A stretch of DNA of 64,000 bases, taken from NCBI GenBank assembly GCA_902500125.1, contig GCA_902500125.1_4132.1. One strand, written 5' to 3'. The notes beneath the pieces are model-generated. The model had not been told where the DNA came from. It did no database searches and saw only the letters and a program-made list of their open reading frames with translations. This document shows positions 17,424 through 64,000 of the stretch, piece after piece. The stretch is from Escherichia coli. GTDB lineage: Bacteria > Pseudomonadota > Gammaproteobacteria > Enterobacterales > Enterobacteriaceae. The position numbers were made by a program, and so were the translations under genes. Each line of letters begins with the position of its first letter. Positions within the stretch are counted from its first letter, which is position 1.

Positions 17424-18086
17424 ATGATGAAATCAAAATTAGGTTTGTTTTATAAAAACTATTTTGTTAAACAACGTAAATTTATAAAAAAATATTTCTC
17501 TGGCGAGAAGTCTAGTCCTATAATCTTTAAAAGACCAAGTTATAATACTTACTTAGCTGGTGCTAAACAGTCTAAGAAATTTATTACTCTTTTACATAAA
17601 AACAAAATTAAAGCTTCTTATGTTGAAACGAGAAGAAACTCATCAATAACTCCTGGTGATTTTATTGAGTACGGATGTTTCAATATTAAGTACAATGATA
17701 ATACATACTTTATGGATATTGATTGTAATACATCCAATCTTTTTAACATTGTAGTAAATCCATTAAAACAATATAATGTTTATGGTGATTCTATTATCAA
17801 ATTAATCAAAAACAAAGATAGCTTTGATTTTGAAATAAATGTTTTAGATGATAATTTTGACGAAGTACCAGTAAACCCTGAAATCTGTGATATTTTAAAC
17901 AGTTTAAAAGGTAGTACCTACACTATATCATCTGATTTAATGTTTCAGTACTCATTAATCCATAAAGATATTGAAAAGTATATTGAATGCTCCAAAATTT
18001 TGAATTATCTTTACGATGAATTTAAAAAGAGTTCTAAAATAACCGCATACACTTTGTACAATATTCCTAAAATGGTGAATCTTTGA
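17424..18086 (+). CDS. family C protein, long form with basic N-terminus (220 aa)
   Basis: AAGGAG upstream; motif SDLMFQYSLIHKD; 3' end overlaps convergent minus-strand ORF by 20 nt. Confidence 0.65.
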   Translation: MMKSKLGLFYKNYFVKQRKFIKKYFSGEKSSPIIFKRPSYNTYLAGAKQSKKFITLLHKNKIKASYVETRRNSSITPGDFIEYGCFNIKYNDNTYFMDIDCNTSNLFNIVVNPLKQYNVYGDSIIKLIKNKDSFDFEINVLDDNFDEVPVNPEICDILNSLKGSTYTISSDLMFQYSLIHKDIEKYIECSKILNYLYDEFKKSSKITAYTLYNIPKMVNL

Positions 18087-24634: not shown

Positions 24635-24641
24635 CTATATT

Positions 24642-25379: not shown

Positions 25380-25445
25380 AATTCCCTCCTTTATTCATTA
25401 TAATATATTTAATACAAAAAAGAAAAGCCAGTACAAAGTACTGGC
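25380..25445 (-). promoter_or_regulatory. terminator + late-type promoter/SD cassette
   Basis: Hairpin 25445-25427 + T-run, TTAAATATATTATAATGAATAAAGGAGGG. Confidence 0.6.
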
Positions 25446-25452
25446 ATAGTAT

Positions 25453-26580
25453 TCAAAAAGGTAAATCAATTTGCTTAGTAATAATAGTATCTAACGGTAT
25501 TGAACACAATGAGAAATTCTTTCCACCCGTATTTTTAGGATTATATCCATTCATCCATACATTATTACCTTCGTAAAATGTATTCCAGTATAAAGACCCA
25601 CTATATCGTGTATTCGAATTGAACGATGTAAAATTGAATTCTTGAAATGCTGTAAAATATGGAAGGGAACTTGAACTACTTCCCGTAAATGGGGTATGCC
25701 CAGTTGCTATTAGTTTGTTTGTATCTGCATTAATTAAAAATACAACACTAGTCGAATAGTCCAACGAATCAGGATGATATATATTACTCATATCACCTAT
25801 AGTAAAACCAACATCAAAAACTTTACTATGTGCACCACTACCAGCAAAAGTAGTTCCAGTTGCATATATTTTATTATCAGATGTTATCATTACAAAACCA
25901 ACACCAGAAACAAAACTGCATTTTATATCATAAGATATATCATCAAACAACGGAACAAATGTGGTTGCATCACCCGATGTTGCTTTAACTTGAAAGCTGT
26001 TATTTGAACCTGAACCATATACAGTTCCATCGTTTTTAATCTTAAACAATGTATCGCCAAGGTAACCGCCAAATATATTATCCACATTAGTGTCAAGTAC
26101 AGTCCACGCTGAAACATAATTTTTATGTCCTAAACCTAATGAACCACTTCGATTCCATCCTCTTCCATAAAGTGTTCCGTCTTTCATTAATATAAATGCT
26201 GTATAACCACATAACATTTTTTTAATTTGGGTAACATCTATACCAGTGAAATACACAGCCCAGTCAGTATATCCTTGTTGGAAAGTATTAGAATTCGTGA
26301 ATGCATATGTTGAACCTGAACCATATATTTTATCACCTTTAATAACAACGGAAAACGATCCTAACCATAAGTCATCAACTTCAGTTGTGATTTGTTGAAC
26401 TGCTCCTAACGATACAAACTGTGTACTTAAACCCGCATTATAGTTTGAATCTTCACCGTGTGCATATACAGTGCCATCTTGCATTAGAAACATTTCAAGA
26501 GTGTAACTAACAACACTTTTCTTTATATTATTAACTTCGATTATATTCCCATAATCAAACATTCTAACAAAAGGTAACAT
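25453..26580 (-). CDS. MLPF-tagged RCC1-like beta-propeller repeat protein (375 aa)
   Basis: MLPFVRMFDYGNI; GWNRSGSLGLGHKNYVS, GSGSNNSFQV. Confidence 0.7.
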   Translation of the reverse strand: MLPFVRMFDYGNIIEVNNIKKSVVSYTLEMFLMQDGTVYAHGEDSNYNAGLSTQFVSLGAVQQITTEVDDLWLGSFSVVIKGDKIYGSGSTYAFTNSNTFQQGYTDWAVYFTGIDVTQIKKMLCGYTAFILMKDGTLYGRGWNRSGSLGLGHKNYVSAWTVLDTNVDNIFGGYLGDTLFKIKNDGTVYGSGSNNSFQVKATSGDATTFVPLFDDISYDIKCSFVSGVGFVMITSDNKIYATGTTFAGSGAHSKVFDVGFTIGDMSNIYHPDSLDYSTSVVFLINADTNKLIATGHTPFTGSSSSSLPYFTAFQEFNFTSFNSNTRYSGSLYWNTFYEGNNVWMNGYNPKNTGGKNFSLCSIPLDTIITKQIDLPF

Positions 26581-26642
26581 ATTTCCCTCCTTTATTCAAT
26601 ATACTATATTTAATCAAAAAAAGCCAGTACTCAAGTACTGGC
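26581..26642 (-). promoter_or_regulatory. terminator + late-type promoter/SD cassette
   Basis: Hairpin 26642-26623 + T7, TTAAATATAGTATATTGAATAAAGGAGGG. Confidence 0.6.
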
Positions 26643-26649
26643 ATATCAA

Positions 26650-27816
26650 TTACGAAAAACGTGGATCATCAAGAACAAACACGGTACTACTTGGACCACC
26701 TTGTGTGGTGACAGCACTAGTACTGTAAAGAAAGTTACCATCTGTCATATAAGTTCTACGATTCGTACAAATAACTCTTACTTTATTCATATCGATATCA
26801 GGATTAGGTAATGGACATGAAGTATACACTGATACATCAGTACTTGTTCCTATTCCCAGCGTACCTTCATTTGTGGTTGAACCGCTATTCAACCCACTAG
26901 CATATATACCACTGCTTGTAATAACAAAAGTGGCGTAGAATGGAGAACCTTCACCTATATTTAATTTAGTTCCAGGTGGTTGTCTTGCCGCAGCAACCGC
27001 ACCATATGCTTTCCCACCAGATGTGGCAAGATTACCAAGAGCACCATACTGTTGTTGTCCACCATTATACACTGTGTTAGTGCCATCACTGTTAGTGTGG
27101 ATACCAATAGAATTATAGTTACTGTTGCTATATACTAAAGCGGCATTAGAAGTAACTGTATTTCGTGTATATACTTTATATTGTTGGGTAAAATTACCAC
27201 TAGTGGACGTACCCTGTACAGTTCCAGTGTAGTATATATATCCGTCTGTACCAATGAATGAGTGCATAACACTACCTGCAAAAATTTTTTCTGGAGTAAC
27301 ACCTGACGGTATTGTTGATTGTACAAATCTACCCACTACATTTGTTGTTGTATTATTTCCCAATTGACCGGAGTCACCATAACCACTTGACCATATGGTA
27401 TTGTTCTCAAGAAGAACACTAATTGATAATCTTGATAAAGCTATTTCTTTAACATCACTTTCTAATGTATCAAAAAATGAAGTACAATTTGTCCAAGTGT
27501 TCACTACGCTAGAACTAACACCAATTTGTTTATTATCACCAGAACTATAATAATTCCCATCATATGTTTGTATAAGTATAACAGAACCACCAACCCATAC
27601 TTTATCAACTGAACCAAACGTTCTTGTCCATGTGGTAACTATATCCCCGCTATTATTACCCAATCCAAAGCAACCACTACTATCTACGCCTCGTACATAT
27701 AAATCTCCTGAAGTCATCAGAACTGCACAGAATGATTGTGCACCTTTAACATCTTTAATTGGCTCTGGTTCAGGTGCAACATTTCCATAATCAAACATTC
27801 TTACAAAAGGTAACAT
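26650..27816 (-). CDS. MLPF-tagged RCC1-like beta-propeller repeat protein (388 aa)
   Basis: MLPFVRMFDYGNV; GYGDSGQLGNNTTTNV, NEGTLGIGTSTDVS, QQYGALGNLATSG. Confidence 0.75.
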   Translation of the reverse strand: MLPFVRMFDYGNVAPEPEPIKDVKGAQSFCAVLMTSGDLYVRGVDSSGCFGLGNNSGDIVTTWTRTFGSVDKVWVGGSVILIQTYDGNYYSSGDNKQIGVSSSVVNTWTNCTSFFDTLESDVKEIALSRLSISVLLENNTIWSSGYGDSGQLGNNTTTNVVGRFVQSTIPSGVTPEKIFAGSVMHSFIGTDGYIYYTGTVQGTSTSGNFTQQYKVYTRNTVTSNAALVYSNSNYNSIGIHTNSDGTNTVYNGGQQQYGALGNLATSGGKAYGAVAAARQPPGTKLNIGEGSPFYATFVITSSGIYASGLNSGSTTNEGTLGIGTSTDVSVYTSCPLPNPDIDMNKVRVICTNRRTYMTDGNFLYSTSAVTTQGGPSSTVFVLDDPRFS

Positions 27817-29733: not shown

Positions 29734-30393
29734 ATGAAACTTAATGCACACAGCAAACAATACCTTAAGCACTTTAAGTACCTCAACAGTATTCAAGCAG
29801 AATCTATTACATCTGCATATACGTATCACCCTAATGTACTAAAGAAACGAAATAAAAAGAAAAAATCCAGAAATGTTCTCGTATCTAAGAACCTCAAATC
29901 GTACTTGAAGAAAAATAATATAGCTCTTGCTTTTATTAATATCTATCATACTGATTTAAAAGTATTGAGTACTAATACCAGCACAAAAGCACTAAAGAAT
30001 GCATCTATCTATATACACATGGATAATATCCCGTGCACTATAATTCTATCTTTCGGGAATGTATACTTCTTCGGGAATTGTAATAGCACCCATGATATCA
30101 GTACTGCACAATTCCAAATCGGCGATATGTACTGCATGGGTTCAGAAAAAATACACGATAACATGCACTTCTTCCAAAAGCAACGTACTAACGAAACTGA
30201 TACAGTACTGCAATTCCTCAAAGAACTACAAAACAAAGAATTAACACCAGAAGAAGAATTCATGTACAGTACTGTAATCGATAATCCAGAACTCTATAAA
30301 AACGCGTACAAACTAACAAAACATGTACAGGAACTTATCAGTACTGATAAGAAATTTCATAACCTCATTACGTATATTACAAACTATGTATAA
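29734..30393 (+). CDS. family C-related protein, long form with basic N-terminus (219 aa)
   Basis: AAGGA upstream; KKRNKKKKSRN N-region; TPEEEFMYSTVID resembles the EEYFQxSL motif; interrupts the family A array. Confidence 0.6.
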   Translation: MKLNAHSKQYLKHFKYLNSIQAESITSAYTYHPNVLKKRNKKKKSRNVLVSKNLKSYLKKNNIALAFINIYHTDLKVLSTNTSTKALKNASIYIHMDNIPCTIILSFGNVYFFGNCNSTHDISTAQFQIGDMYCMGSEKIHDNMHFFQKQRTNETDTVLQFLKELQNKELTPEEEFMYSTVIDNPELYKNAYKLTKHVQELISTDKKFHNLITYITNYV

Positions 30394-53187: not shown

Positions 53188-53385
53188 ATGCGTATTTTAA
53201 CTCAAGCAGAACATCACGAAAGACTTATCAATAACATGGCATATATCCTACATATGTCACATATCCGTGGTATTGCATATAAGCGTGAATTGGTTATGGC
53301 ACTATTCATTGGAACTAACTTTCAGGAAAGGTATGTCAAGGATTGGATTTCATATTTAATTGAAGATATAACGGGTAAACTATGA
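53188..53385 (+). CDS. family B small protein (65 aa)
   Basis: GGAG SD; motif FIGTNFQERYVKDWISYLIEDI. Confidence 0.65.
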   Translation: MRILTQAEHHERLINNMAYILHMSHIRGIAYKRELVMALFIGTNFQERYVKDWISYLIEDITGKL

Positions 53386-53590
53386 AAATTATCACACAAT
53401 TTCAACTATATAATCTTATGATCGAATATAGAAAGAATATATATATATACCAGATGAGTTATCTAGGGATGAAAAAAAGTTTATTCTATCGGAGTGGTGG
53501 ATGATGGCTGGACTGGGAACCAACTTCCAAGAAAGTTTTGTTAATGATTGGATTTTACATTTAATAAAAGATATAAAGAGTAAACAATGA
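53382..53590 (+). pseudogene. family B member disrupted at an (AT)7 run
   Basis: ATG 53382 (ATGA-coupled) gives MKIITQFQLYNLMIEYRKNIYIY. The conserved C-half (..SEWWMMAGLGTNFQESFVNDWILHLIKDI) is in another frame. The switch lies in ATATATATATATAT 53436-53449. Confidence 0.55.
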
Positions 53591-53796
53591 AAACTATAAC
53601 ACGAACCCAATCATTAGGTCTTATCTTGAAATACATGGACTTAATGTTGGATATCAGCAAAGACCTTCCTAAAACTGAAATCCAAGTTGCAAGAGCAGAG
53701 ATCCGCATGTTGGCTGTACTGAACACAAACCATCAGGAAGATTATGTTGAAGAATGGATTCGATTTTTAATAGAAGATATAAAGAGTAAATTATGA
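53587..53796 (+). CDS. family B small protein (69 aa)
   Basis: ATGA overlap; VLNTNHQEDYVEEWIRFLIEDI. Confidence 0.65.
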   Translation: MKTITRTQSLGLILKYMDLMLDISKDLPKTEIQVARAEIRMLAVLNTNHQEDYVEEWIRFLIEDIKSKL

Positions 53797-54008
53797 TTAT
53801 TATAGAAAACTCATATCAATATACTGAACGCATCGCTGCCAGACAACTTGAAATCCTCATAATATACGAAGAGACTTCTGATTTAAACTTAGCCGAGGTA
53901 TTGGAAAATGATATACTATTGGGTGCATTCTTAGGAACAGACTATCAGAAGTATTATGAGGAAAAGTATTTGTCATCTCTTGAGAAATATATCAGGAGCA
54001 AATTATGA
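53793..54008 (+). CDS. family B small protein (71 aa)
   Basis: ATGA overlap; FLGTDYQKYYEEKYL. Confidence 0.65.
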   Translation: MIIIENSYQYTERIAARQLEILIIYEETSDLNLAEVLENDILLGAFLGTDYQKYYEEKYLSSLEKYIRSKL

Positions 54009-54217
54009 TTTTTTTAACACCAGAAGAATATAAGAAACGTTTCAATTCCGCACAGGGTGAAATCTTACTTATATACCTTTCAAATGCAGACCTTAACTTA
54101 TCAAGGGTATTAGAAAAAGATTTACTTATGGGTGCATTCCTTGATACAGACTTTCAGGTGTATTATGTAGGGGAATACTTAATTGCACTTCAGAATTATA
54201 TCAGGAGTAAACTATGA
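54005..54217 (+). CDS. family B small protein (70 aa)
   Basis: ATGA overlap; FLDTDFQVYYVGEYL. Confidence 0.65.
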   Translation: MIFLTPEEYKKRFNSAQGEILLIYLSNADLNLSRVLEKDLLMGAFLDTDFQVYYVGEYLIALQNYIRSKL

Positions 54218-54441
54218 AACATTTAAGTAATTCCGAGAAGAATAAAATTATCATTGCTGCAATAAACAAATATTTTACACTTCCTCACAAAGAAGGTTTA
54301 TGTATAAGAGAACACAGGATAAACACCACCGATATACGCATGATGGCTGTACTGGGGACGAACTTCCAGGAAGAGTATGTTATTGCACACATAGTTGCAC
54401 TCAAGAATTACATTATGGACAAATGTAATGAACATCATTAA
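54214..54441 (+). CDS. family B small protein (75 aa)
   Basis: ATGA overlap; VLGTNFQEEYVIAHI. Confidence 0.65.
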   Translation: MKHLSNSEKNKIIIAAINKYFTLPHKEGLCIREHRINTTDIRMMAVLGTNFQEEYVIAHIVALKNYIMDKCNEHH

Positions 54442-54652
54442 TAACTTTGAATACGAGGCCCGTGCTAAGAGTGCCAGAAAAAAAGAGAACACCATTTACT
54501 TCACTATGATGTACTTACAATGGACTGAAATTGAAGAAAAGGTTGCTGAAGTATGGATGTTGGAATTCATGGGGACGCAGTATCAGAATAGGTTTGCGGG
54601 TGAGTATATCAATGTTCTTATGAAACAAATAGAAAGAAAGGAAAAGAACTAA
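54428..54652 (+). CDS. family B small protein (74 aa)
   Basis: ORF 54395 trimmed to ATG 54428; FMGTQYQNRFAGEYI. Confidence 0.6.
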   Translation: MNIINNFEYEARAKSARKKENTIYFTMMYLQWTEIEEKVAEVWMLEFMGTQYQNRFAGEYINVLMKQIERKEKN

Positions 54653-54810
54653 TGGTTTTCATTAACATATCTGACCAACTCGATACTAAACTAGAAGTCG
54701 AGCAGAGTGAGGGATGGATGTTGTACTTTCTTGGAACTTCTCATCAGAATTTTTATATCCATGAACACATAGTTGCACTCACAAATCTAATAAGGGATAA
54801 ATGTAAATGA
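54652..54810 (+). CDS. family B small protein, short (52 aa)
   Basis: Not in ORF track; TAATG junction; FLGTSHQNFYIHEHI. Confidence 0.55.
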   Translation: MVFINISDQLDTKLEVEQSEGWMLYFLGTSHQNFYIHEHIVALTNLIRDKCK

Positions 54811-55064
54811 AACACTTGACGAACGATGAATATTCACTTAGAATTCGAAAGCTCACCCCAGAAGCAAGAGTAATCTACGATGACGATGCACTTTCATGGA
54901 ACGAGATGAAAGTTAAAGTTCATGAGCTATGGTTGCTGTACTTTGTGGGAACCCAATATCAAGAGAAATATTGTACCGATTATCTTGAACAACTAATGGA
55001 TCTTATACAGATAAAACTAAATGAACGAATTGTGGAAAAATATGAAAACTTTATCAAGCACTGA
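54807..55064 (+). CDS. family B small protein (85 aa)
   Basis: ATGA overlap; FVGTQYQEKYCTDYL. Confidence 0.65.
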   Translation: MKHLTNDEYSLRIRKLTPEARVIYDDDALSWNEMKVKVHELWLLYFVGTQYQEKYCTDYLEQLMDLIQIKLNERIVEKYENFIKH

Positions 55065-55293
55065 GTATCAAACTGCCCTCTTCTCCCTTCTAAACACCCT
55101 CCGCACGAACAATAAACTTTATAATTCCCGTGAAGCTGATATCGTCAACGCTGATGTATATCTTAATAAATTCATAGGGACTAACTATCAAGAACTGTTC
55201 ACTCTACGATATATCGCTGCATTGAGAAACGAAATATCAGATAAAACCCGTCAAGCCAGAAGAGAATGGAATAAACAATGCGACAAAGACTAA
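55042..55293 (+). CDS. family B small protein (83 aa)
   Basis: ORF 55021 trimmed to ATG 55042 (either is possible); FIGTNYQELFTLRYI. Confidence 0.55.
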   Translation: MKTLSSTEYQTALFSLLNTLRTNNKLYNSREADIVNADVYLNKFIGTNYQELFTLRYIAALRNEISDKTRQARREWNKQCDKD

Positions 55294-55514
55294 ATCACAA
55301 AATGTATTGTAAACTATTGCAGACACTGGCACAGAAACACTATGACACTGTATCTGAAATATTACCCTATGATATCATGCGTTTAATTCATAGTGAGGCA
55401 GAGATGCTTGTACTGATGACAGGCACTGATAAAAAAGCAATTGCCAAATCAATAGATATGTTCATCGAAGCACAATGTCAACACATTAGAACCGAGATAT
55501 GGAGACGAGAATGA
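55278..55514 (+). CDS. family B-related small protein, divergent (78 aa)
   Basis: Position and size fit the array; motif degraded (LMTGTDKKAIAKSI). Confidence 0.55.
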   Translation: MRQRLNHKMYCKLLQTLAQKHYDTVSEILPYDIMRLIHSEAEMLVLMTGTDKKAIAKSIDMFIEAQCQHIRTEIWRRE

Positions 55515-55726
55515 TAACACTAAATGAGTTTCAGTATCATTGGAGGTTACAAACTATCAAATCAAAAGTGTATAGTATTGTGTTAAACAAATCTATTGCA
55601 CAAGAGGACAAATGTGTTATAATAGCTGAAATGAAGTTGGGTGCTTTCGTAGGGACAAACTATCAAAACATCTACACTGACGTATTGTTAAGTGCCTTAC
55701 GTAACAAGGTGGTATCCAAAATATGA
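55511..55726 (+). CDS. family B small protein (71 aa)
   Basis: ATG 55511 is 6 nt after GGAG and ATGA-coupled (ORF track 55499); FVGTNYQNIYTDVLL. Confidence 0.6.
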   Translation: MITLNEFQYHWRLQTIKSKVYSIVLNKSIAQEDKCVIIAEMKLGAFVGTNYQNIYTDVLLSALRNKVVSKI

Positions 55727-55941
55727 GAAATTTACAAGGCTTTGAATACATCAGACTCCTGAAAACATGCACCAGCAGAAGGAAAATCTTATCAAGCGAT
55801 AAGAGCATCCAAGCTAACCTTAAGCACGCACTAGTAACTGAACTCTATGTAGGTGCACTCTTAGGCACAAACTATCAACAAATGTATGTGGATCTATGGA
55901 TTGACGCTCTACAGAAAGAGGTTAAAAGTAAATGCAAATGA
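55723..55941 (+). CDS. family B small protein (72 aa)
   Basis: ATGA overlap; LLGTNYQQMYVDLWI. Confidence 0.65.
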   Translation: MRNLQGFEYIRLLKTCTSRRKILSSDKSIQANLKHALVTELYVGALLGTNYQQMYVDLWIDALQKEVKSKCK

Positions 55942-56150
55942 TTAATTTAAGTAAAGATGAATATTATGAACGTCTTGCAAAAACTTATCCAGCACGTAAG
56001 GCCGTTTATGATAGTCACATTATTGAACGCTCAAAGAAGTTGATTGTAGTAAATGAGATTAAGATGCTTTCAGTCTTAGGAACAAACTATCAAGAGAATG
56101 CTGTACTGTTGTTAATTGATGCCCTCCAGAGAGAGATACAAAGTAAATGA
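55932..56150 (+). CDS. family B small protein (72 aa)
   Basis: ATGCAAATGA junction (alternative ATG 55938); VLGTNYQENAVLLLI. Confidence 0.6.
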   Translation: MQMINLSKDEYYERLAKTYPARKAVYDSHIIERSKKLIVVNEIKMLSVLGTNYQENAVLLLIDALQREIQSK

Positions 56151-56395
56151 TTCATTTATCTTACCATGATTATCAAAAACGTTTAAATGCATCAAGGGAT
56201 ATAAGGATTCAAATCTTCAATAACAAAAAATTGAAACCTGACACCAGAAGAATCAAAATGATAGAAGCAGAGTTATGCAACTTCCTGGGGACGAACTATC
56301 AGGCAGGTAAGGTAAAAAACTATCTTAGAGAACTAATGATTTGTATCGAAAATAAATGTGAGGTTGATGAACATGCAAATGATCAATTTAAGTAA
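56147..56395 (+). CDS. family B small protein (82 aa)
   Basis: ATGA overlap; FLGTNYQAGKVKNYL. Confidence 0.65.
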   Translation: MIHLSYHDYQKRLNASRDIRIQIFNNKKLKPDTRRIKMIEAELCNFLGTNYQAGKVKNYLRELMICIENKCEVDEHANDQFK

Positions 56396-56636
56396 AGATG
56401 AATATACCGAGCGTATGACAAAAATTACGCACAAACGTAATACAATCTATCACAACCCAGAAATTCAACACAGTAAGAAAATGATTATGATGCGTGAGTT
56501 AAAGATGGGTGTATTCTTGGGAACAAACTATCAAGAGCCAGAAGTAAATCGATTAATTGCTGAGTTACTATTGGAAATCAAAGGTAAGCTGTACTTTCAT
56601 CAAATGACCCAGCCACTGAGGTGTACTGATCGATGA
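56373..56636 (+). CDS. family B small protein (87 aa)
   Basis: ORF 56358 trimmed to ATG 56373 (MQMINLSKDEY, as in 55932); FLGTNYQEPEVNRLI. Confidence 0.6.
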   Translation: MQMINLSKDEYTERMTKITHKRNTIYHNPEIQHSKKMIMMRELKMGVFLGTNYQEPEVNRLIAELLLEIKGKLYFHQMTQPLRCTDR

Positions 56637-56884
56637 ATGCGATGAATATTGTGAATAACATCAGATTAGCAGAAAGATTTGATAGAATTGGGGAAGCACT
56701 GAGAAGATACGATAAAGAATATGGTCATTTGAGCTTTTCTATAGAAAAGAGATATGAACTTGAAGCAGAGTTTAAAATGCAGAGTCTCTTAGGCACACAG
56801 TATCAAAACCAATATATTCAAACTTGGATTGATTGTTTAATCCAGACAATTTACGTAAGAAACATTAAATGCAAAATGAAATGA
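56633..56884 (+). CDS. family B small protein (83 aa)
   Basis: ATGA overlap; LLGTQYQNQYIQTWI. Confidence 0.65.
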   Translation: MNAMNIVNNIRLAERFDRIGEALRRYDKEYGHLSFSIEKRYELEAEFKMQSLLGTQYQNQYIQTWIDCLIQTIYVRNIKCKMK

Positions 56885-57129
56885 TATACTTAACCTATAA
56901 TGAATACGTCGAGAGATTAGTTCGTGCCAAGAGATATACCAATAAACGTCCAATTGACCTAAACCAAACCCCAGCAGAAAGGAGTGCAGAAGTATTATTC
57001 CAATCACTACCATATCTTCTGGGAACTGATAGACAAGAGGAATATGTTGCACGTATGATTAGATATCTTAAAATCACTATTAAGGAAAAAGTAAATGCAA
57101 ATGCAAATGAAATACTTAACAGACGATGA
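56869..57129 (+). CDS. family B small protein (86 aa)
   Basis: LLGTDRQEEYVARMI; alternative ATG 56881. Confidence 0.6.
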   Translation: MQNEMIYLTYNEYVERLVRAKRYTNKRPIDLNQTPAERSAEVLFQSLPYLLGTDRQEEYVARMIRYLKITIKEKVNANANEILNRR

Positions 57130-57352
57130 GTTAAAAGAACGACTAATTAAATCCAGAAAACTTACAAATCAACTTCCAAACGACACAAACAAGTCACATG
57201 CCGAAAGGAGTGCAGAAGTTTTATACATTCAACTCATGTACTTTCTTGGTACTGACAGACAAGAGTATTACATTGAAAGTATGCTTCGATATCTTAAATT
57301 CTCTATAAAGGAAAAGATACATGCTCAAGAATTTAAAAATCCTAACAGTTAA
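57095..57352 (+). CDS. family B small protein (85 aa)
   Basis: FLGTDRQEYYIESML; close paralog of 56869. Confidence 0.6.
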   Translation: MQMQMKYLTDDELKERLIKSRKLTNQLPNDTNKSHAERSAEVLYIQLMYFLGTDRQEYYIESMLRYLKFSIKEKIHAQEFKNPNS

Positions 57353-57563
57353 TGAATATCATAAGATTGTAATGAAAACTAATAGTGAAATTTCTAAAAA
57401 ATCAAACCCAAAGTACATACTGGAACACACATTCGAAGAACGTCAATTAGCTCTAGTTGAAGCAAAACTTCTTGCACTCCTAGGGACTAACTATCAAGAA
57501 GAATACATCAGAAAACTAATATACCTTTTAACTAAACATATAAGAAAAAGAAAAAATGCATGA
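57321..57563 (+). CDS. family B small protein (80 aa)
   Basis: AAGGA SD; LLGTNYQEEYIRKLI. Confidence 0.65.
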   Translation: MLKNLKILTVNEYHKIVMKTNSEISKKSNPKYILEHTFEERQLALVEAKLLALLGTNYQEEYIRKLIYLLTKHIRKRKNA

Positions 57564-57790
57564 AACACTTGACAGATGATGAACATGGGCTTATAGTAAT
57601 GGATGTAATCAACATCGAATACAAAAAGTTGATACGCTACCGTTGTTATGAAGATAAGCAACTCGTTCTAGCAGAACAGAAGTTGTTTCGACTCTTAAAC
57701 ACAAACTTCCAAGCACAATACGAAGAATCGTATATGTACCTTTTGGCGAGGAAAGCAAAAAGAGATTATGAAAATTTTAAGCAAAGGTGA
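57560..57790 (+). CDS. family B small protein (76 aa)
   Basis: ATGA overlap; LLNTNFQAQYEESYM. Confidence 0.65.
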   Translation: MKHLTDDEHGLIVMDVINIEYKKLIRYRCYEDKQLVLAEQKLFRLLNTNFQAQYEESYMYLLARKAKRDYENFKQR

Positions 57791-57983
57791 TTCAGTAATA
57801 TTACTTATAGAGAGTTCAAGTAAATTCTTAAACATAACACTGTCTGATATAGATGAAGATGACAAAGAAGTACTGAGAGCAGATTTAAGAGTACTGTTAC
57901 ATATCGGAACAAACCTACAAGAAGAATATGTAGAGTGCTACATCAATGAACTTAAAGAATTAGTACTGAGAAAATGCAAATGA
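57768..57983 (+). CDS. family B small protein (71 aa)
   Basis: HIGTNLQEEYVECYI. Confidence 0.6.
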   Translation: MKILSKGDSVILLIESSSKFLNITLSDIDEDDKEVLRADLRVLLHIGTNLQEEYVECYINELKELVLRKCK

Positions 57984-58201
57984 AAATCATTACCGATGCA
58001 GAATACCTAACAATCATAAATGGACTGTTTTTGAAGCTCTTCGTCATTAACACATCAGATATACCAGATATGGATAAAATTATTAAGAGAAATGAAGTCT
58101 ATGTTCTAGCTACCCTTGGAACGAACTATCAAGAACACGACATTAAAGATTATATTAATACACTTAAACGAGCGATTGAACTAAAATGCCAAAACCACTA
58201 G
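57974..58201 (+). CDS. family B small protein (75 aa)
   Basis: ATGCAAATGA junction; TLGTNYQEHDIKDYI. Confidence 0.6.
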   Translation: MQMKIITDAEYLTIINGLFLKLFVINTSDIPDMDKIIKRNEVYVLATLGTNYQEHDIKDYINTLKRAIELKCQNH

Positions 58202-58401
58202 GAACAGCAGAATACATTGAACTAATGGGATTACACTTCTCATCCTTTCAGAAACTTATGCGAGAATCAAAGAATGATTTAGAATATACCATCAGAGGTT
58301 CCGATTTAAGAATGCTTCTCACCCTAGACACAGATTCCCAAGAGCGATTTGTCAATGAGCATATTAGAGCACTTTTAATGGAAATTCAAAGTAAACTATG
58401 A
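58186..58401 (+). CDS. family B small protein (71 aa)
   Basis: TLDTDSQERFVNEHI. Confidence 0.6.
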   Translation: MPKPLGTAEYIELMGLHFSSFQKLMRESKNDLEYTIRGSDLRMLLTLDTDSQERFVNEHIRALLMEIQSKL

Positions 58402-58613
58402 AGGTAATATCAAATCAAGAGTACTTGGCACTATTCAGGAAGAATAATCACAAATATATGGCACTTGATTCAAGAACTGATATAAGTGAACTTGAAAAAA
58501 ATCTTTTGCGTTCAGATATGATAGTACTGACACTCTTAGGAACACAGCATCAAGAGAGAACTGTTAATTCACACATAGGGATTCTAATGCAGATAGTACA
58601 GGAAAAGATATGA
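58398..58613 (+). CDS. family B small protein (71 aa)
   Basis: ATGA overlap; LLGTQHQERTVNSHI. Confidence 0.65.
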   Translation: MKVISNQEYLALFRKNNHKYMALDSRTDISELEKNLLRSDMIVLTLLGTQHQERTVNSHIGILMQIVQEKI

Positions 58614-58831
58614 GAATCATAACACAACAAGATATTCTTAAGTTCACAAGGGTTCATGCATCTGAATTTGATGCTATATTATCAAAAAGTTACAACAACC
58701 CTTATACAGAAGATGTACACTACAATGAATTATGGGTGTATATACTTTTAGGTACAGATCATCAAGAGCAAGCAGTACAGAAGTATTTGTTAGCTTTACG
58801 TGATGCTACTGCTAATGGAGTACGTGTTTAA
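58610..58831 (+). CDS. family B small protein (73 aa)
   Basis: ATGA overlap; LLGTDHQEQAVQKYL. Confidence 0.65.
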   Translation: MRIITQQDILKFTRVHASEFDAILSKSYNNPYTEDVHYNELWVYILLGTDHQEQAVQKYLLALRDATANGVRV

Positions 58832-58832
58832 T

Positions 58833-59075
58833 ATGAAAGTACTGACAGAACTAGAAATGTATCATAGATTTAATAAGTACTATCATTTACTTAAGCCTAT
58901 ACAGAGGATTAAATGTCCATTTGAAGAGAAACAGGTATTAATTTATGAGCATAAGTTATTTGTATCATTAGGTACAGATCAACAAGAGTACTATTTGACG
59001 TTGTACTTGATTACATTAATAGATTTAATTTACTATAAAACCAAACAAGCTAATAAAGAGAAATATGAAAACTAA
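58833..59075 (+). CDS. family B small protein (80 aa)
   Basis: ORF 58800 trimmed to ATG 58833, 1 nt after previous stop; SLGTDQQEYYLTLYL. Confidence 0.6.
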   Translation: MKVLTELEMYHRFNKYYHLLKPIQRIKCPFEEKQVLIYEHKLFVSLGTDQQEYYLTLYLITLIDLIYYKTKQANKEKYEN

Positions 59076-59409
59076 TATACAACTCAAGGTATATAAATCA
59101 TTTGAACATACATATATCAAAAGTAGTCTATGTAGAGATGTAATGGATTACAAGGGTAAGCCATTCACAATTACTTATGATTCTTATGTTGATGATTTAT
59201 ATATATCATTTGTTAATTACGAAAATAAAATATACAAGCACGTTGATATTAAAGATTTAAGTACTTTATCACCAGAGGAATACTTCCAGGAATCATTAGT
59301 ATGGGATTTAGAGTTCCCTATGCCATTAGTACATAAGATGATAGTACTAATGAAAGAATCTAAACAGGAGCCTAATAGTGCTTATGAAGAACACATTATT
59401 GAGTATTAA
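59065..59409 (+). CDS. family C protein, short form (114 aa)
   Basis: Motif LSPEEYFQESLVWDLEFPMPLVHKM. Confidence 0.65.
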   Translation: MKTNIQLKVYKSFEHTYIKSSLCRDVMDYKGKPFTITYDSYVDDLYISFVNYENKIYKHVDIKDLSTLSPEEYFQESLVWDLEFPMPLVHKMIVLMKESKQEPNSAYEEHIIEY

Positions 59410-59779
59410 GAGTACTGATAATATTAAGAGTTATACAAGCTCAAGTACTGTGACAATCGAAGTGAATTCTATTAATGCTGGTAATGCAGTAGATAAGTTC
59501 TTTATTGCTCAAGGGTACAGGAAAGATATTCATCAATATTGTTCAGTATATGGGGAGTACAATAGTACTGAAGATATAATTTATTGGTCAACACATCAAG
59601 ATTATCTAACTAAAATTGGAGTCCCAGATGTTAGTACTTTATCTGAAGAAGAATACTTTCAGTACAGCTTAATATGTGATGTACCTATACCTTTAGGGTT
59701 AATCAAGGGTATACAGGAAGAGGTTCATAAGCTTAAATCCATGAGTAAAGGTACTTTCATTAGAACAGTGCAATACTAG
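59378..59779 (+). CDS. family C protein (133 aa)
   Basis: GTG 59378 is 9 nt after AGGAG (alternative ATG 59384); LSEEEYFQYSLICDVPIPLGLIKG. Confidence 0.6.
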   Translation: MLMKNTLLSIKSTDNIKSYTSSSTVTIEVNSINAGNAVDKFFIAQGYRKDIHQYCSVYGEYNSTEDIIYWSTHQDYLTKIGVPDVSTLSEEEYFQYSLICDVPIPLGLIKGIQEEVHKLKSMSKGTFIRTVQY

Positions 59780-59780
59780 C

Positions 59781-59809
59781 TTGACAGTACTTTTCATTAC
59801 TGATATAGT
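59781..59809 (+). promoter_or_regulatory. sigma70-like promoter
   Basis: TTGACA 59781, 17 nt, TATAGT 59804. Confidence 0.5.
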
Positions 59810-59838
59810 ACACTAACGTTAATCATAGGGTAAAAATT

Positions 59839-60084
59839 ATGTTAAATTTTTTAAATTTCCTTATCGTTTTGTGTATTGTTCTTGGGATTGCACCATTTGT
59901 ATTGTATTTCATGGATTCAGATGAAATGCAGAAGATGAATTGTACAAGGACAGGACAGAGTAGAGAAGAGACGATTCTTATGCCTGTTACGGTTATTGTT
60001 AACAACATGCCCATTACAAACATGGTCCCTACCCTAACGACAACGTACCAGTACTCTTGTGCTGACGGAGAGAGGTGGAGATGA
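59839..60084 (+). CDS. membrane protein (81 aa)
   Basis: ORF track; N-terminal TM MLNFLNFLIVLCIVLGIAPFVLYF. Confidence 0.6.
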   Translation: MLNFLNFLIVLCIVLGIAPFVLYFMDSDEMQKMNCTRTGQSREETILMPVTVIVNNMPITNMVPTLTTTYQYSCADGERWR

Positions 60085-60401
60085 AATTTAATATAGCAAA
60101 AACATCGAGTATATGTATTTTTGGTTATGCAGAAGAGTTAGGTGATATTGACATTCTTTTGTACAAAAAGGATGGTGTTATGCATTTCAAGTACCAGGAT
60201 GAAGAGGCAGACAATTATCTTTTACCTAATTTAGTACAAATGCAGGAAGAGGAATTATTCCAGTACAGCTTAGTATACGACATTGATATTTGCACGATGC
60301 CAGTACTAATTAGTATTCAAAAAGTGATGCTCGATATGTATGATAAGCTAATACAAGGTACATCAGGGAGAATCATTGAAATCGATATACAAGACAATTA
60401 A
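60075..60401 (+). CDS. family C protein, short form (108 aa)
   Basis: GGTGGAG SD; QEEELFQYSLVYDIDICTMPVLISIQK. Confidence 0.65.
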   Translation: MEMKFNIAKTSSICIFGYAEELGDIDILLYKKDGVMHFKYQDEEADNYLLPNLVQMQEEELFQYSLVYDIDICTMPVLISIQKVMLDMYDKLIQGTSGRIIEIDIQDN

Positions 60402-60594
60402 TCAAGAATGGAAGACCCAAAAGTACAGGGAATTCAACAGGAATTTTACAAAAGATGCATTGAATTTAAAAACAACAGAGTTTGATATGTTTATTTTTCT
60501 TGGAACACGTTCACAAGAACAATTTGTTCATTATTATATAAATTCGTTGCGAACGGAGATAGTATGCAAAACACAGGGTATTATAAAAAGGTAA
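60376..60594 (+). CDS. family B-like small protein (72 aa)
   Basis: TTG start 5 nt after GGGAG (no in-frame ATG until codon 46); FLGTRSQEQFVHYYINSL. Confidence 0.5.
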   Translation: MKSIYKTINQEWKTQKYREFNRNFTKDALNLKTTEFDMFIFLGTRSQEQFVHYYINSLRTEIVCKTQGIIKR

Positions 60595-60830
60595 ACCAAT
60601 ATTTGTACGCTACAAAGTACAGGGATTTTTGTTTAAAGGGTGGTGATGAAGATTTTTCTTTGCGATTATCAGAATTTAATCTGTTATTTTATCTTGGTAC
60701 AAAAGAACAAGAAGAAATGGCACAGAAATTTATCAAGCACCTTTTACAAAAAATTAATATGCAAATTTTGATGCTTAAGTTACAGAATGAGATAAATGAA
60801 TATGAATCCAGAAATAGTACAGGATCTTAA
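60564..60830 (+). CDS. family B-like small protein (88 aa)
   Basis: GGAGAT SD; YLGTKEQEEMAQKFIKHL. Confidence 0.6.
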   Translation: MQNTGYYKKVNQYLYATKYRDFCLKGGDEDFSLRLSEFNLLFYLGTKEQEEMAQKFIKHLLQKINMQILMLKLQNEINEYESRNSTGS

Positions 60831-61188
60831 ACAAGTAATATTCCTTTTGAATACCAGAAGTGAATTGTATACAGAGTTAAAAGAGATTAATGCATTTTAT
60901 CAGAATTTTGTAATCCAAGAGTTCAGTGATTTAATTACAGATGCATTATTTGAATTCTCGGAGAAATACAAAGGAACAGAGTTCAGTGTTAAGAATGTTA
61001 TTCGTCCAAGTACAAGGAAAATTATATTATCACATTTTACATTTGACAATAAAGATTTATTCAGTCATAATCCAAGTACAGCTTTATATTTTATTCCTGA
61101 TTCAGACAAAAATCATCCTATTCATTACGGATGGATTTTGTCATATATAGTACAAGGAAAGGAGTATCCTATTAAATGGAAAGATTAG
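60796..61188 (+). CDS. hypothetical protein (130 aa)
   Basis: ORF track. Confidence 0.6.
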   Translation: MNMNPEIVQDLKQVIFLLNTRSELYTELKEINAFYQNFVIQEFSDLITDALFEFSEKYKGTEFSVKNVIRPSTRKIILSHFTFDNKDLFSHNPSTALYFIPDSDKNHPIHYGWILSYIVQGKEYPIKWKD

Positions 61189-61337
61189 GGCGATTAGATT
61201 ATTACACAATTAATACAAATTATTTGTTGAGTAATATAAAATCCGATTACAAAATATGGATAAAGAACAGAGATAGCATGTGTTATGAATTTTATTTAGA
61301 TTATGCTATCAAACGATTTTTAAGAGAAGAACATTAA
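61176..61337 (+). CDS. small protein (53 aa)
   Basis: Not in ORF track; ATG 61176 after GGAG; ends TAATG into next gene; fills gap. Confidence 0.4.
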   Translation: MERLGRLDYYTINTNYLLSNIKSDYKIWIKNRDSMCYEFYLDYAIKRFLREEH

Positions 61338-61540
61338 TGCAAAAGATTAATACGATAACATTAAATGCATTACAGGATTCATTATTAGATAGTATTAAGA
61401 TGTATTACAATATACATTTGAAGGGTGGTATTGATAATTACGATTATTATTTGAGTTTAATTACATTTGAGCACCTTTCAGTACAGGACAGGATTATACA
61501 TCCTACAAATCCTAGGTATCCATCGATAGGTAAATTATGA
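61337..61540 (+). CDS. hypothetical protein (67 aa)
   Basis: ORF track; TAATG junction. Confidence 0.55.
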   Translation: MQKINTITLNALQDSLLDSIKMYYNIHLKGGIDNYDYYLSLITFEHLSVQDRIIHPTNPRYPSIGKL

Positions 61541-62085
61541 ATGAGATAGATTTATTAGCACACAAGATAAGTACAATAATGCTTATCCTCAATAACAACC
61601 ATCCTATATCGCAGATAGATGGAATCCTGAGTCAGAGGACAGGTGGTAGTTTATATTTGTCCATAAACGCAGATATCGCAAGGAAATACATTGATATTGA
61701 TGTTGAAATCGAATATGATACAACGGGGATTGTTGATGTAGGAGCATTAATCAGTTCAAATCCAGTATCAGCATCCCCATTGACCAAAGATGTTAGTACA
61801 GGATTCGAAGGATATTTGTGGTACAATACCAATGATGATTATTTTATATATCAGCATTCCAATACAAATTATGATGAAGACAAATTTCAGTTCATAGACC
61901 CTTATGATGAAGCTGAAGTATTTCAAAAATCATTAATCACAAAACCGCATGAGATGATGTATCTAATGTTATTCAGTACAATGCATTTGAATCCATTAAT
62001 TAAAGGTTTAAAATTTTATATTCAATTAAATTTAGTCCATGTAGTTTATGATTTATTAATGCAAGGATATAGTTATGAAGTATAA
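61537..62085 (+). CDS. family C protein, long form (182 aa)
   Basis: ATGA overlap; DEAEVFQKSLITKPHEMMYLMLFSTMHLNPL. Confidence 0.65.
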   Translation: MNEIDLLAHKISTIMLILNNNHPISQIDGILSQRTGGSLYLSINADIARKYIDIDVEIEYDTTGIVDVGALISSNPVSASPLTKDVSTGFEGYLWYNTNDDYFIYQHSNTNYDEDKFQFIDPYDEAEVFQKSLITKPHEMMYLMLFSTMHLNPLIKGLKFYIQLNLVHVVYDLLMQGYSYEV

Positions 62086-62386
62086 AATGATGTATACCCC
62101 AGATATGATTTATGTTGAATTAGAAGATGATGACGATGGGTGGAATTTGATTTATTCAAGAAGTTCAGGTTGGTACATGGCACATTTAAATGATTCGATA
62201 GTTACAGATTATTTTGTAGATTTCAATACATTATCCGATGAAGAATTGTTCCAACAGCAATTAGTGATTGACACGGGTGGTTATGATGTCTTATTATTAA
62301 AAAAGATACAAAAAGCTGTTATTGATTTTAAGCCCATGATATGGCAAAGGAAATATTATGACCTCGAAGTACCATACCAGCAATGA
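62075..62386 (+). CDS. family C protein, short form (103 aa)
   Basis: AAGGA SD; LSDEELFQQQLVIDTGGYDVLLLKKIQK. Confidence 0.65.
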   Translation: MKYKMMYTPDMIYVELEDDDDGWNLIYSRSSGWYMAHLNDSIVTDYFVDFNTLSDEELFQQQLVIDTGGYDVLLLKKIQKAVIDFKPMIWQRKYYDLEVPYQQ

Positions 62387-62924
62387 AATTCAGTACACCT
62401 ACGCTAATGCAATCCTTATGGGACAAAAGTTAGCTTGTATTGTTGCAGCCTTATATAATGCCCAGAAATATCACAAGCGTCATTTCCACAAATGTATTGG
62501 TATTATTCCATCGAAGTACAATACATATATTGCGTGCACGAGTCATTTTGATAAACGATTCAATACACCTGATACCCCAAATGCCAGTAGTGTTATTGGT
62601 CTTTTGGATTTCGCACCTGGTGCTGTTATTGGAAAGAATGATTTAGAGTACACATGGTATAATAAAAATGCCCCGTTAGTAATGGGAAAATATGATACAG
62701 AAACGAATAAAACAATAGAGTACAATACATATAAATCAGAGGAAGAATTTTTCCAAGGTTCATTGCTTGTACCAGTGCGTTTGTTGTTTTATAATGTCCT
62801 TATTAGTACAGTACACAATAGTCCATTACACAAGAATCACAAAATTAATTTCAATTTTTGTGCTTATGCGATTGATGGTGTGTATGAGTGTTTAATGGAG
62901 GTATTGAGTTATGAAGCTGAATAA
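62358..62924 (+). CDS. family C protein, long form (188 aa)
   Basis: AAGGA SD; SEEEFFQGSLLVPVRLLFYNVLISTVHNSPL. Confidence 0.65.
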   Translation: MTSKYHTSNEIQYTYANAILMGQKLACIVAALYNAQKYHKRHFHKCIGIIPSKYNTYIACTSHFDKRFNTPDTPNASSVIGLLDFAPGAVIGKNDLEYTWYNKNAPLVMGKYDTETNKTIEYNTYKSEEEFFQGSLLVPVRLLFYNVLISTVHNSPLHKNHKINFNFCAYAIDGVYECLMEVLSYEAE

Positions 62925-63252
62925 TACATTTGATATTAATAAGTTAAGAGAATGGTTTTATAGTATTGAAATTGAAGCCATCCCGTATCATAGATATGAA
63001 CAATATAATTTAACCAGTATTGATATCCGTGAGTTGTACGCGTATTATCAAAGTGCATTAGAGATGCATAAGTTATTTTTGAGTACAGATTTTGTTATAA
63101 ATTACAATTTTGAGGAATTTAATAATTATAATTTAGTACAGAAATATGTAGTAGCAAAGTACATGTACCTTCAAGGAATTACAAGTAATTTGGAATTCAA
63201 TACAGTCCTGGCTTTAGTTGAGGTAATTTTATGCAGTACATGTATGATTTAG
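62911..63252 (+). CDS. hypothetical protein (113 aa)
   Basis: GGAGG SD. Confidence 0.6.
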   Translation: MKLNNTFDINKLREWFYSIEIEAIPYHRYEQYNLTSIDIRELYAYYQSALEMHKLFLSTDFVINYNFEEFNNYNLVQKYVVAKYMYLQGITSNLEFNTVLALVEVILCSTCMI

Positions 63253-63737
63253 AGTTTAGTTTAGATGCTGCCTTTAAATTTGTTCACAAGATAGAAACAA
63301 TATACAGTACATTATGTGCAATACAATCAGTATCATCTGAGTTTGATGTTGGTGAAAAATATCAGGTATGGAATAATACATTTCTAAACAAAGAACGTTG
63401 CTCTACGGGGTTTAATATTTTAACATTTAATCCCAGCAATTGTTACCCAGAGAAGCATGAACGTTATCCGAATGACGACATGTGGTTTGATTACACAAAA
63501 GATGGTGATATGTCATCCCTTGTAGTTCCTGATGATTTTAATGCCGAAGATTTAACGAAAGAGTGGTGGTTTCAACAGAATTTAGTACACGATGATATTG
63601 ATTTATTTTTTTATGTAGTATTTAAAATGCTTTACCACAACAATATATTAAAAGATAGTGTGTTTTTTTCATGTCTATATATTGATGATTTGTACAATGA
63701 AATCCAAATCAACATGCCCAGAACGCCTGTATCGTAA
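63231..63737 (+). CDS. family C protein, long form (168 aa)
   Basis: GAGG SD; LTKEWWFQQNLVHDDIDLFFYVVFKMLYHNNIL. Confidence 0.65.
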   Translation: MQYMYDLEFSLDAAFKFVHKIETIYSTLCAIQSVSSEFDVGEKYQVWNNTFLNKERCSTGFNILTFNPSNCYPEKHERYPNDDMWFDYTKDGDMSSLVVPDDFNAEDLTKEWWFQQNLVHDDIDLFFYVVFKMLYHNNILKDSVFFSCLYIDDLYNEIQINMPRTPVS

Positions 63738-63762
63738 GATATGGGCTTTTTTCGTTTTGGTA

Positions 63763-63791
63763 TTGACAAAGAAGTGCAAAGCTGTTATCAT
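63763..63791 (+). promoter_or_regulatory. sigma70-like promoter
   Basis: TTGACA 63763, 17 nt, TATCAT 63786; preceded by GGGC + T6. Confidence 0.5.
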
Positions 63792-63819
63792 GTGTAATCA
63801 TTTTAAAGGAGAACATATA

Positions 63820-64000
63820 GTGAGTTTCATAATCCCAAGTACATACGAAGATGCATCAAGTGCAGTGTATAAGGTTCATTATATTTTTAATTTAATTATT
63901 AGTGCATCAAAAAATAAAATGTATGCACCTCTTGTGAAATATGATAAAAATGAGGAAATTTTTGTTAGCACAGAACAAACGATTTTTCCATATTTCAAAG
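63820..64000 (+). CDS. hypothetical protein, N-terminal fragment (runs off window)
   Basis: GTG 63820 is 7 nt after AAGGAG; frame open to the window end. Confidence 0.5.
   Translation, partial: MSFIIPSTYEDASSAVYKVHYIFNLIISASKNKMYAPLVKYDKNEEIFVSTEQTIFPYFK

Follow-up and report, generated by a model that had tools for sequence, protein, structure and literature searches.

A large tandem family of small paralogous proteins beside the terminal repeat of Asteriusvirus-type jumbo coliphages

The DNA analyzed here is a 64,000-nt stretch of an Escherichia coli assembly (contig GCA_902500125.1_4132.1), which is called the window at its full length. It is AT-rich, no tRNAs were found across its 64,000 nt, and by its sequence it belongs to a jumbo coliphage of the Asteriusvirus type. 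Near its end, at 59065-63737 on the plus strand, seven open reading frames (ORFs) of 114, 133, 108, 182, 103, 188 and 168 amino acids (aa) were confirmed. They encode members of one protein family, referred to as family C, and the genes are named below by their first position. An earlier note on this DNA described the seven as paralogs sharing an acidic-aromatic motif, and assigned three dispersed longer ORFs (4985, 17424 and 29734) to the same family. From 59,000 to 63,800 the window is 97.8% identical to phages phAPEC6, G17, Sharanji and SHEFM2K and 94-95% identical to PBECO4, and all genes under this match are annotated as hypothetical proteins in these relatives. The array region was found in 34 phage records, and the ORFs are intact in Sharanji, phAPEC6 and E9.1, the three that were read in detail.

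The candidates, seven clustered and three dispersed, were evaluated among the 272 ORFs of the window. Family C members are only about 15-30% identical and are split by PHROGs into many families. Pairwise BLASTP matches are weak, the best pairs being 59065 with 59378 (E 2e-5) and 61537 with 62358 (1e-5). The earlier note proposed building a hidden Markov model (HMM), and when the remaining 268 window ORFs were ranked by a model made from only the four short forms, the six other candidates took the first six places, with E-values of 5e-5 (4985), 9e-5 (62358), 3e-4 (61537), 7e-3 (63231), 0.39 (17424) and 0.51 (29734). Cross-matches to phrog_13866 link 59065, 59378, 60075 and 62075, and further links join 60075 to 62358 (phrog_12674), 61537 to 62358 (phrog_19795) and 61537 to 63231 (phrog_22855). 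Through these profiles and phrog_33987, the array genes form a single network.

In an alignment of all ten sequences, the motif is a single block of columns located about 35-50 residues before the C-terminus. It can be written as [ST]-E-E-E-[YLFM]-F-Q-x-[SQN]-[LT]-[VIL] and is present in all ten ORFs, with F-M in 29734. A regular expression for the motif, written post hoc, matched 10 of the 272 ORFs and none of the 262 others, with 0.017 matches expected in residue-shuffled ORFs. Profile similarity extending beyond the motif is significant for the seven array genes and for 4985. The motif strings quoted in the earlier note are all present and aligned in one column block. The note had also named non-homology of the motif across members as the outcome that would undo its reading; alignment and profile comparison found the motif to be homologous, and a paralog family with a homologous acidic-aromatic motif is supported by the HMM, the PHROG links, the alignment and hhalign. 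The description of the motif as invariant was too strong, since only F is invariant, Q is near-invariant (9/10) and 29734 has F-M.

Membership of the three dispersed forms was judged separately. The basic N-termini ascribed to them are present, with 12-14 lysines and arginines against 1-2 aspartates and glutamates in the first 50 residues. The 4985 protein matches a profile of the phAPEC6 array, made without this gene, at E 7e-5. Against the family C profile, hhalign gave a probability of 82.8% (P 9e-6) for 17424, and of 85.6% (P 6e-6, only 20 columns) for 29734; the two matches cover the motif and the next helix (20-33 columns). The 17424 and 29734 families match each other at full length, with a probability of 91.5% over 158 columns. 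Divergent orthologues were gathered for both families (32-44% and 36-74% identity), and canonical motifs are found in them: LSEEQLFQYSLIHD in vB_Ec-M-J and YSEDEMFQWSTII in Turkey5. Orthologues of 17424 carry SEEQLFQYSLI, the Turkey5 orthologue of 29734 carries SEDEMFQWSTI, and further motifs in the two families are TDELMFQYSLLY, SEEELFMYSTV and SEDEMFQWSTII. The HMM, PHROG, hhalign and orthologue evidence therefore establishes eight members, and 17424 and 29734 are probable homologues of family C. Thus, of the three dispersed assignments, that of 4985 stands as made and the other two stand as probable only. The features are collected in the table.

Table. Family C members and putative transcription signals in the window
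Feature	Coordinates	Strand	Motif or sequence	Remarks
Short member, 114 aa	59065..59409	+	LSPEEYFQESLV (residues 68-79)	HMM seed; phrog_13866
Short member, 133 aa	59378..59779	+	LSEEEYFQYSLI	GTG start (134 aa in the relatives' annotation); HMM seed; phrog_13866
Short member, 108 aa	60075..60401	+	QEEELFQYSLV	Length from GTG; HMM seed; phrog_13866 4e-40
Long member, 182 aa	61537..62085	+	DEAEVFQKSLI	HMM 3e-4; phrog_19795
Short member, 103 aa	62075..62386	+	SDEELFQQQLV	HMM seed; phrog_33987, phrog_13866
Long member, 188 aa	62358..62924	+	SEEEFFQGSLL	HMM 9e-5; phrog_19795
Long member, 168 aa	63231..63737	+	TKEWWFQQNLV	HMM 7e-3; phrog_22855; full-length alignment with long forms
Next long member, start only (window end)	63820..64000	+		Likely GTG at 63820 behind AAAGGAG Shine-Dalgarno
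Dispersed long member, 190 aa	4985..5557	+	NDEEYFQESIV	Short-form HMM 5e-5; hhalign 92.8%
Dispersed long form, 220 aa, probable member	17424..18086	+	SSDLMFQYSLI	HMM E 0.1-0.4
Dispersed long form, 219 aa, probable member	29734..30393	+	TPEEEFMYSTV	M for Q
Sigma-70-like promoter	59781..59809	+	TTGACA-17-TATAGT	Extended -10 TG; intergenic gap in array
Sigma-70-like match, uncertain	62268..62297	+	TTGACA-18-TATTAT	Inside 62075-62386, upstream of 62358 start
Terminator-like hairpin and T-run	63725..63746	+		Overlaps last 13 bases of 63231-63737, including the stop codon
Sigma-70-like promoter	63763..63791	+	TTGACA-17-TATCAT	With TG; between terminator and next member

The orthologues of 60075 (P0025-P0042) start at the ATG at 60081 and have 106 residues. 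The ORFs interleaved with the members at 59839-60084, 60376-60830, 60796-61188, 61337-61540 and 62911-63252 gave no match to the family HMM and were left as non-members. Two of these ORFs have features of their own. The plus-strand ORF at 62,911-63,252 (113 aa), between two long members, contains ELYAYYQSALEM, which is loosely motif-like and one residue short, and its E-value with the family HMM is above 2. The plus-strand ORF at 59,839-60,084 (81 aa), downstream of the promoter-like site at 59,781, has a strongly hydrophobic N-terminus (MLNFLNFLIVLCIVLGIAPFVLYFM) and probably encodes a small membrane protein. The earlier note saw short and long forms alternate, but in the window they run short, short, short, long, short, long, long, with non-member ORFs between them, and the full array is likewise irregular.

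The array does not end at 63737, and family C is larger than ten. The member that starts at 63820 has orthologues in Sharanji (gp010) and phAPEC6 (gp455c) with the motif GEDEYFQYSTV, and its own motif falls past the window end. Sharanji ORFs just beyond that point carry DEYFQYSTV, EEYFQMQCI, AFMFQLSLV, ESYFQQSLI and AARFQYETA. In phAPEC6, HMMs made from the window sequences matched 28 consecutive plus-strand ORFs at E<1e-3 (the 7 orthologues and 21 further paralogs). After iteration there were 37 member ORFs at locus positions 20,066-44,680, about three more members follow in the next 4 kb, and then unrelated genes. The total is about 40 co-directional paralogs in about 29.5 kb, which is about 8% of the genome and extends about 25 kb past the window end by the phAPEC6 sequence. 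The window genes are thus the upstream end of this array. Member lengths in phAPEC6 are 103-207 aa without regular order. The F-Q pair is kept in 34 of the 37 members, and F is invariant in every aligned member.

Copy number is not fixed. Copies have been gained or lost even among close relatives: BF17 has an additional 168-aa paralog of the 61537 type (like P0046/P0047; L010 3363-3869) between its 61537 and 62075 orthologues, UB, slurp01 and others have 0.5-1.3 kb of extra DNA between the same two genes, and the region that spans 4.8 kb in the window is 5.4-6.0 kb in several strains. Five closely similar SEEYYFQ copies in one block of phAPEC6 point to recent duplication. One allele of a window gene lacks the motif altogether. 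The orthologue of 62358-62924 in Salmonella phage SD-1_S14 (P0023) has a 12-residue deletion that corresponds exactly to the motif EEEFFQGSLLVP and leaves 176 instead of 188 aa, which reflects either an error in the assembly or a loss-of-function allele that arose naturally.

Such an array could be evolutionary filler, that is, tandem duplicates that filled the headful after capsid enlargement and are now largely functionless and drifting. Tandem duplication has been proposed to expand jumbo genomes, with an array of more than 30 genes in 121Q as an example (Hua et al. 2017, PMC5646251). The extreme divergence of the paralogs, a relaxed constraint (dN/dS, the ratio of nonsynonymous to synonymous substitution rates, of about 0.3), the strain differences in copy number and the exact loss of the motif in SD-1_S14 would all fit with this explanation. 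However, the ORFs are intact in all three genomes read in detail, the region is present in 34 phage records, and promoter, Shine-Dalgarno and terminator signals are kept. The pooled dN/dS of the seven genes is clearly below 1 (0.32 against phAPEC6, 0.25 against PBECO4 and 0.26 against BF17), and the seven genes are under purifying selection, though it is not strong. The motif is retained even in distant relatives, namely RaK2 and metagenomic contigs, and it is maintained at the protein level despite free synonymous change. We therefore consider filler quite unlikely. The codons also bear on the kind of constraint. In 34 phAPEC6 paralogs, the invariant Phe is encoded by TTC in 19 and TTT in 15, and the Gln by CAG in 20 and CAA in 14, and the conserved Ser of the window genes uses TCA as well as AGC/AGT. 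With synonymous codons in free variation, conservation of the motif cannot be put down to a DNA-level element, such as a recombination site, or to an RNA element, and this explanation was rejected.

AlphaFold2 (AF2) models were made from an 18-sequence alignment of short forms (59065) and a 26-sequence alignment of long forms (61537). The short-form model has a mean predicted local distance difference test score (pLDDT) of 82 and a predicted template modelling score (pTM) of 0.76. It has strands at residues 4-11, 15-19, 34-39, 44-51 and 56-62, helices at 70-79 and 86-98, and a strand at 108-113. The motif, PEEYFQESLV, is exactly the helix at 70-79, and the two 10-residue blocks of residues 61-80, which include it, have the highest pLDDT of the model (means 93 and 95). 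The long-form model (pLDDT 77, pTM 0.77) has the same core, with the motif as helix 125-134, and is extended by one helix at the N-terminus (3-19) and one at the C-terminus (164-180). The order of elements common to the one short and the one long model is a beta-sheet, the motif helix, a second helix and a terminal strand. Each member would thus be one small alpha/beta domain of five or six antiparallel strands, two helices and a final strand, and the dispersed forms would be this domain with a basic N-terminal extension. Most members are acidic (pI 4.1-5.5). In the models, the motif is a core helix of the scaffold within a folded domain and not a free linear signal. Judged by its helical periodicity, the motif would have S/T as N-cap, E-E-E as the first turn and a set of core-packing residues (Y/L/F, F, S, L/T and V/I), whose F/L and Y/S/V faces would contact the sheet and the second helix; F, Q and L are predicted to be buried on the same grounds. 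The one freely variable position is that after Q, where E, Y, K, Q, G, L, M and N occur.

The main rival to a purely structural role of this helix is a docking or oligomerization surface. The conserved acidic helix could be a common interface of all paralogs with a host hub, with a phage protein such as a ClpP-like protease, or between short and long forms in hetero-oligomers, and the variable surfaces would then recruit cargo. Nearly every position of the helix is conserved, including the Gln and E-E-E, in proteins that are otherwise about 15-25% identical. The tight overlap of neighboring genes suggests their co-translation, and a ClpP homologue is encoded near the array. On the other hand, S/T-x-x-E is a classic N-capping box of helices, and F, L and V are spaced as on a packing face, so that a structural explanation is enough. 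In addition, no part of the monomer is modelled with higher confidence than this helix. We regard a docking helix as a tentative possibility, well on the improbable side. The ClpP-like protease subunit is phAPEC6 gp353c (L003 5745-6440), located about 25 kb past the array end. Near it, downstream of the small-gene region, are two Ser/Thr phosphatases, a Sir2-like protein, and the RNA repair proteins RnlA and PseT.

A short linear motif, either a peptide that binds the beta-clamp or a protease cleavage site, is very improbable. Q-x-S-L-[VIL] is reminiscent of the clamp motif QL[SD]LF, and QESLV, QYSLI and QGSLL of QMSLL in MutS. E-x-Y-F-Q resembles the cleavage sites of the tobacco etch virus (TEV) and 3C proteases, and EEFFQG resembles 3C sites ending in LFQ|G. 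This resemblance is the sole point in favor. However, both models place the string mid-helix, within a folded domain and where the prediction is best, and not in a disordered tail or loop. As a clamp motif it was rejected since position 2 (L) is not conserved and the string is inside a high-confidence helix rather than a flexible terminus or loop. As a TEV/3C substrate, for which E-x-x-Y-x-Q and then G or S would be expected in an accessible segment, it was rejected since the residue after Q, which has to be G or S, is variable, the Ser comes one position later and the segment is helical. A 3C-like protease was not noted, only a prohead protease of the T4 type and the ClpP homologue, and no dedicated genome search was made.

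The position of the array was determined from the genome ends. The linear record of E9.1 closes with 2,001 bases that repeat its own positions 18,107-20,107 at 100% identity, and E9.1 therefore has a direct terminal repeat of 20,107 bp (positions 1-20,107). This size agrees with the 20.7-kb terminal repeat of Sharanji (PMC11895373). E9.1 position 1 maps to window position 32,398 and the inner repeat boundary to about 53,090. At about 32 kb of the window, the GC content rises to 0.38-0.40 and the GC skew changes sign, in agreement with the repeat boundary. Because the terminal repeat is placed at 32,398-53,090, the window represents a collapsed or circularized assembly. By this mapping, window 1-32.4 kb comes from the far end of the unique region, with the physical terminus near 32.4 kb. 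From that terminus to the start of the family C array is thus a distance of about 26.7 kb, of which the last 6 kb or so follow the repeat. Going inward from the end, there are about 65 tiny genes in the repeat, then a 25-copy family, and then family C, all on one strand. The array lies next to the terminal repeat and is read inward on the same strand, starting at 59,065.

Consensus matches for sigma-70 promoters are almost all on the coding strand. The pattern TTGAC[AT]-N16-18-TAnnnT occurs 37 times on the plus strand of the window and once on the minus strand, with about 3.6 expected per strand. These sites are consensus matches only, and three of them fall in the family C array. They are densest at 44-52 kb, inside the terminal repeat, and on the minus strand there are none in the block of RCC1-like virion genes at 18-28 kb. 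At 63725-63820, a terminator, a promoter, a Shine-Dalgarno sequence and a start codon follow one another in this order. In the related phage CBB, RpoD-type promoters and short ORFs by the terminal repeat were interpreted as early host-takeover genes (PMC5259590).

The neighboring regions also contain families of paralogs. Between the repeat and family C, a separate tandem family of 25 genes (about 65-92 aa, motif LGT..QE) occupies 53,188-59,075, with two more at 60,376-60,830; it starts at the inner repeat boundary and abuts family C. At 18,067-27,816 on the minus strand are eight RCC1-like beta-propeller paralogs, six full-length (369-411 aa) and two shorter (111 and 269 aa), which are annotated in relatives as "regulator of chromosome condensation" or "DNA condensation protein". 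The homologous pair 17424/29734 flanks this block on the opposite strand, and in vB_Ec-M-J the 17424 orthologue is located between two RCC1-like genes. The earlier note placed each dispersed copy at the edge of a paralog array. This is correct for 17424 and 29734 at the propeller block, but the supposed transmembrane family by 4985 and the note's "family A" showed no BLAST clustering at E<1e-4. Around 29734, at 28.1-32.1 kb on the plus strand between the propeller block and the terminal-repeat boundary, there are small paralog groups (59-84 aa; BLAST groups of 7, 4, 3 and 2).

Several orthologues of the RCC1-like proteins are virion proteins of phAPEC6 by mass spectrometry (PMC7247149). Family C proteins could likewise be virion components, for instance of the inner body or the hair fibers, and particles of the Asteriusvirus type have an inner body and many hair-like fibers of unknown composition (PMC7247149, PMC5646251). 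Both the decorated particle and the nearby RCC1-like paralogs would favor such a role. However, the 62 proteins that mass spectrometry identified in the phAPEC6 virion include no product of gp404c-gp466c (PMC7247149 Table 1). The promoters are of the sigma-70 type and not of a late type, and the region by the terminal repeat is of an early type. A structural role is accordingly very hard to credit.

The family has no apparent relatives outside these phages. Window members gave no Pfam matches, except for two sub-threshold chance matches of 29734. NCBIfam matches were sub-threshold only, such as 16 bits (E 0.002) of 59065 to class I adenylate cyclase, for which the cut-off is 1316; this assignment was rejected as a chance match far under the cut-off and absent in other members. 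Profiles of PDB sequences gave nothing below E 0.24. Fold matches in BFVD were only hypothetical proteins of PBECO4, slurp01 and RaK2 (TM-score 0.75) and, weakly, of GAP32, and the predicted fold apparently matches no solved structure. An exhaustive HMMER search of 1.84 billion (1.84e9) representatives returned 17 clusters at E<=1e-3. One of them was spurious (P0055, a low-complexity repeat protein), and the genuine clusters are all family-like proteins of 102-190 aa, among which there are no fusions to known domains. A second, broader profile search gave no new members. The IMG/VR scan confirmed only 121Q itself, with confirmation by the first sequence only, and a metagenomic contig from a more distant relative has three members within 6 kb. 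From the range of the HMMER and BFVD matches, the family therefore appears to be confined to Rak2-like jumbo phages. Our literature search found no paper that defines family C, its motif, its fold or its extent, and the strings EEYFQ, EELFQ and EEFFQ gave nothing relevant in the full-text literature.

Taken together, the best reading of family C is a diversifying multigene family of early genes whose products are non-structural and act on the host, and we favor it with modest confidence, somewhat on the probable side. The homology, the array size, the protein-level constraint and the position are well supported. We infer the early timing, a cytoplasmic binding function and the host-directed role. 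In this proposed scheme, family C would have expanded by tandem duplication and loss, only within Rak2-like jumbo phages. The sigma-70 RNA polymerase of the host would most likely transcribe it early, from the stretch immediately inward of the terminal repeat. The members would most likely be diversified small binding proteins directed against host proteins or host defenses during takeover, whose specificity would reside in the variable sheet and loops of a scaffold kept together by the conserved helix.

Several points weigh against this reading. With looser promoter criteria, 52-64 kb has 59 sites against 65 expected and is not enriched. We infer early timing from consensus promoter matches and analogy, and no transcriptome or functional study of any Asteriusvirus was found in the literature. 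The alignments behind the AF2 models are shallow (18 and 26 sequences). Six of seven consecutive helix positions are conserved, including a polar Gln and an acidic turn. This conservation exceeds the needs of simple core packing and may leave room for a shared functional surface. Finally, a dN/dS of about 0.3 indicates a constraint lower than we would expect for core genes, an expectation for which no core-gene figure was measured.

A more specific possibility combines a shared surface with diversification. The approximately 40 paralogs might form a combinatorial repertoire for counter-defense or host manipulation, with a previously unseen fold whose acidic helix docks on one hub and whose hypervariable sheet captures host targets. 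Candidates for the hub would be a host machine, the phage ClpP-like protease or partner paralogs. We consider this repertoire, including its hub, quite unlikely. If it were true, family C would be a counterpart, in a bacterial virus, of the terminal multigene families of poxviruses and African swine fever virus (ASFV).

More than 80% of the genes in these 350-kb phages have no assigned function. Here, about 40 separate "hypothetical proteins" become one superfamily with a defined domain, a diagnostic motif, a probable early class and a variable copy number. If the members are indeed host-directed binders, they would offer new inhibitors of E. coli proteins or defense systems, and would be an example of accordion-like duplication adding to the size of a jumbo-phage genome. 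Family C is a new family within a known kind of phenomenon, and it stands out for its size (about 8% of 350 kb) and its apparently unmatched fold.

Homologues of the ten window proteins are catalogued in PHROGs as phrog_13866, 33987, 19795, 34516, 33518, 34359 and 29152, all of "unknown function". PHROGs keeps them as separate families, whereas the present evidence unites them and about 30 more genes in one superfamily. Polo-box domains, RNA polymerase beta-lobe domains, PrgH and p32/Mam33 were also considered as known proteins for comparison. Early gene blocks at the ends of phage genomes are exemplified by the host-takeover module in the terminal redundancy of SPO1 and by the pre-early genes of T5. 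The RpoD-promoter region of CBB by its 22-kb terminal repeat (PMC5259590) likewise has many short ORFs on one strand with sigma-70 promoters and is read inward. However, early blocks of the CBB type are mostly unrelated singletons, whereas the family C array has about 40 genes of a single family. The tandem arrays of 121Q and phage G (PMC5646251) are similar in that one small protein was expanded by tandem duplication in a jumbo myophage, and 121Q has nearly the same genome as the window. In phage G, there is an expansion of a zinc ribbon to about 35 copies (Iyer et al. 2021, PMC7824862). Among large eukaryotic DNA viruses, family C shares with ASFV and poxviruses tandem paralogs near the termini, a conserved scaffold with divergent surfaces, and copy-number differences between strains. 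Multigene families near the termini are known there as the MGF families of ASFV and the "genomic accordions" of poxviruses. They differ from family C in that there is no relationship of sequence or fold and the host of family C is bacterial.

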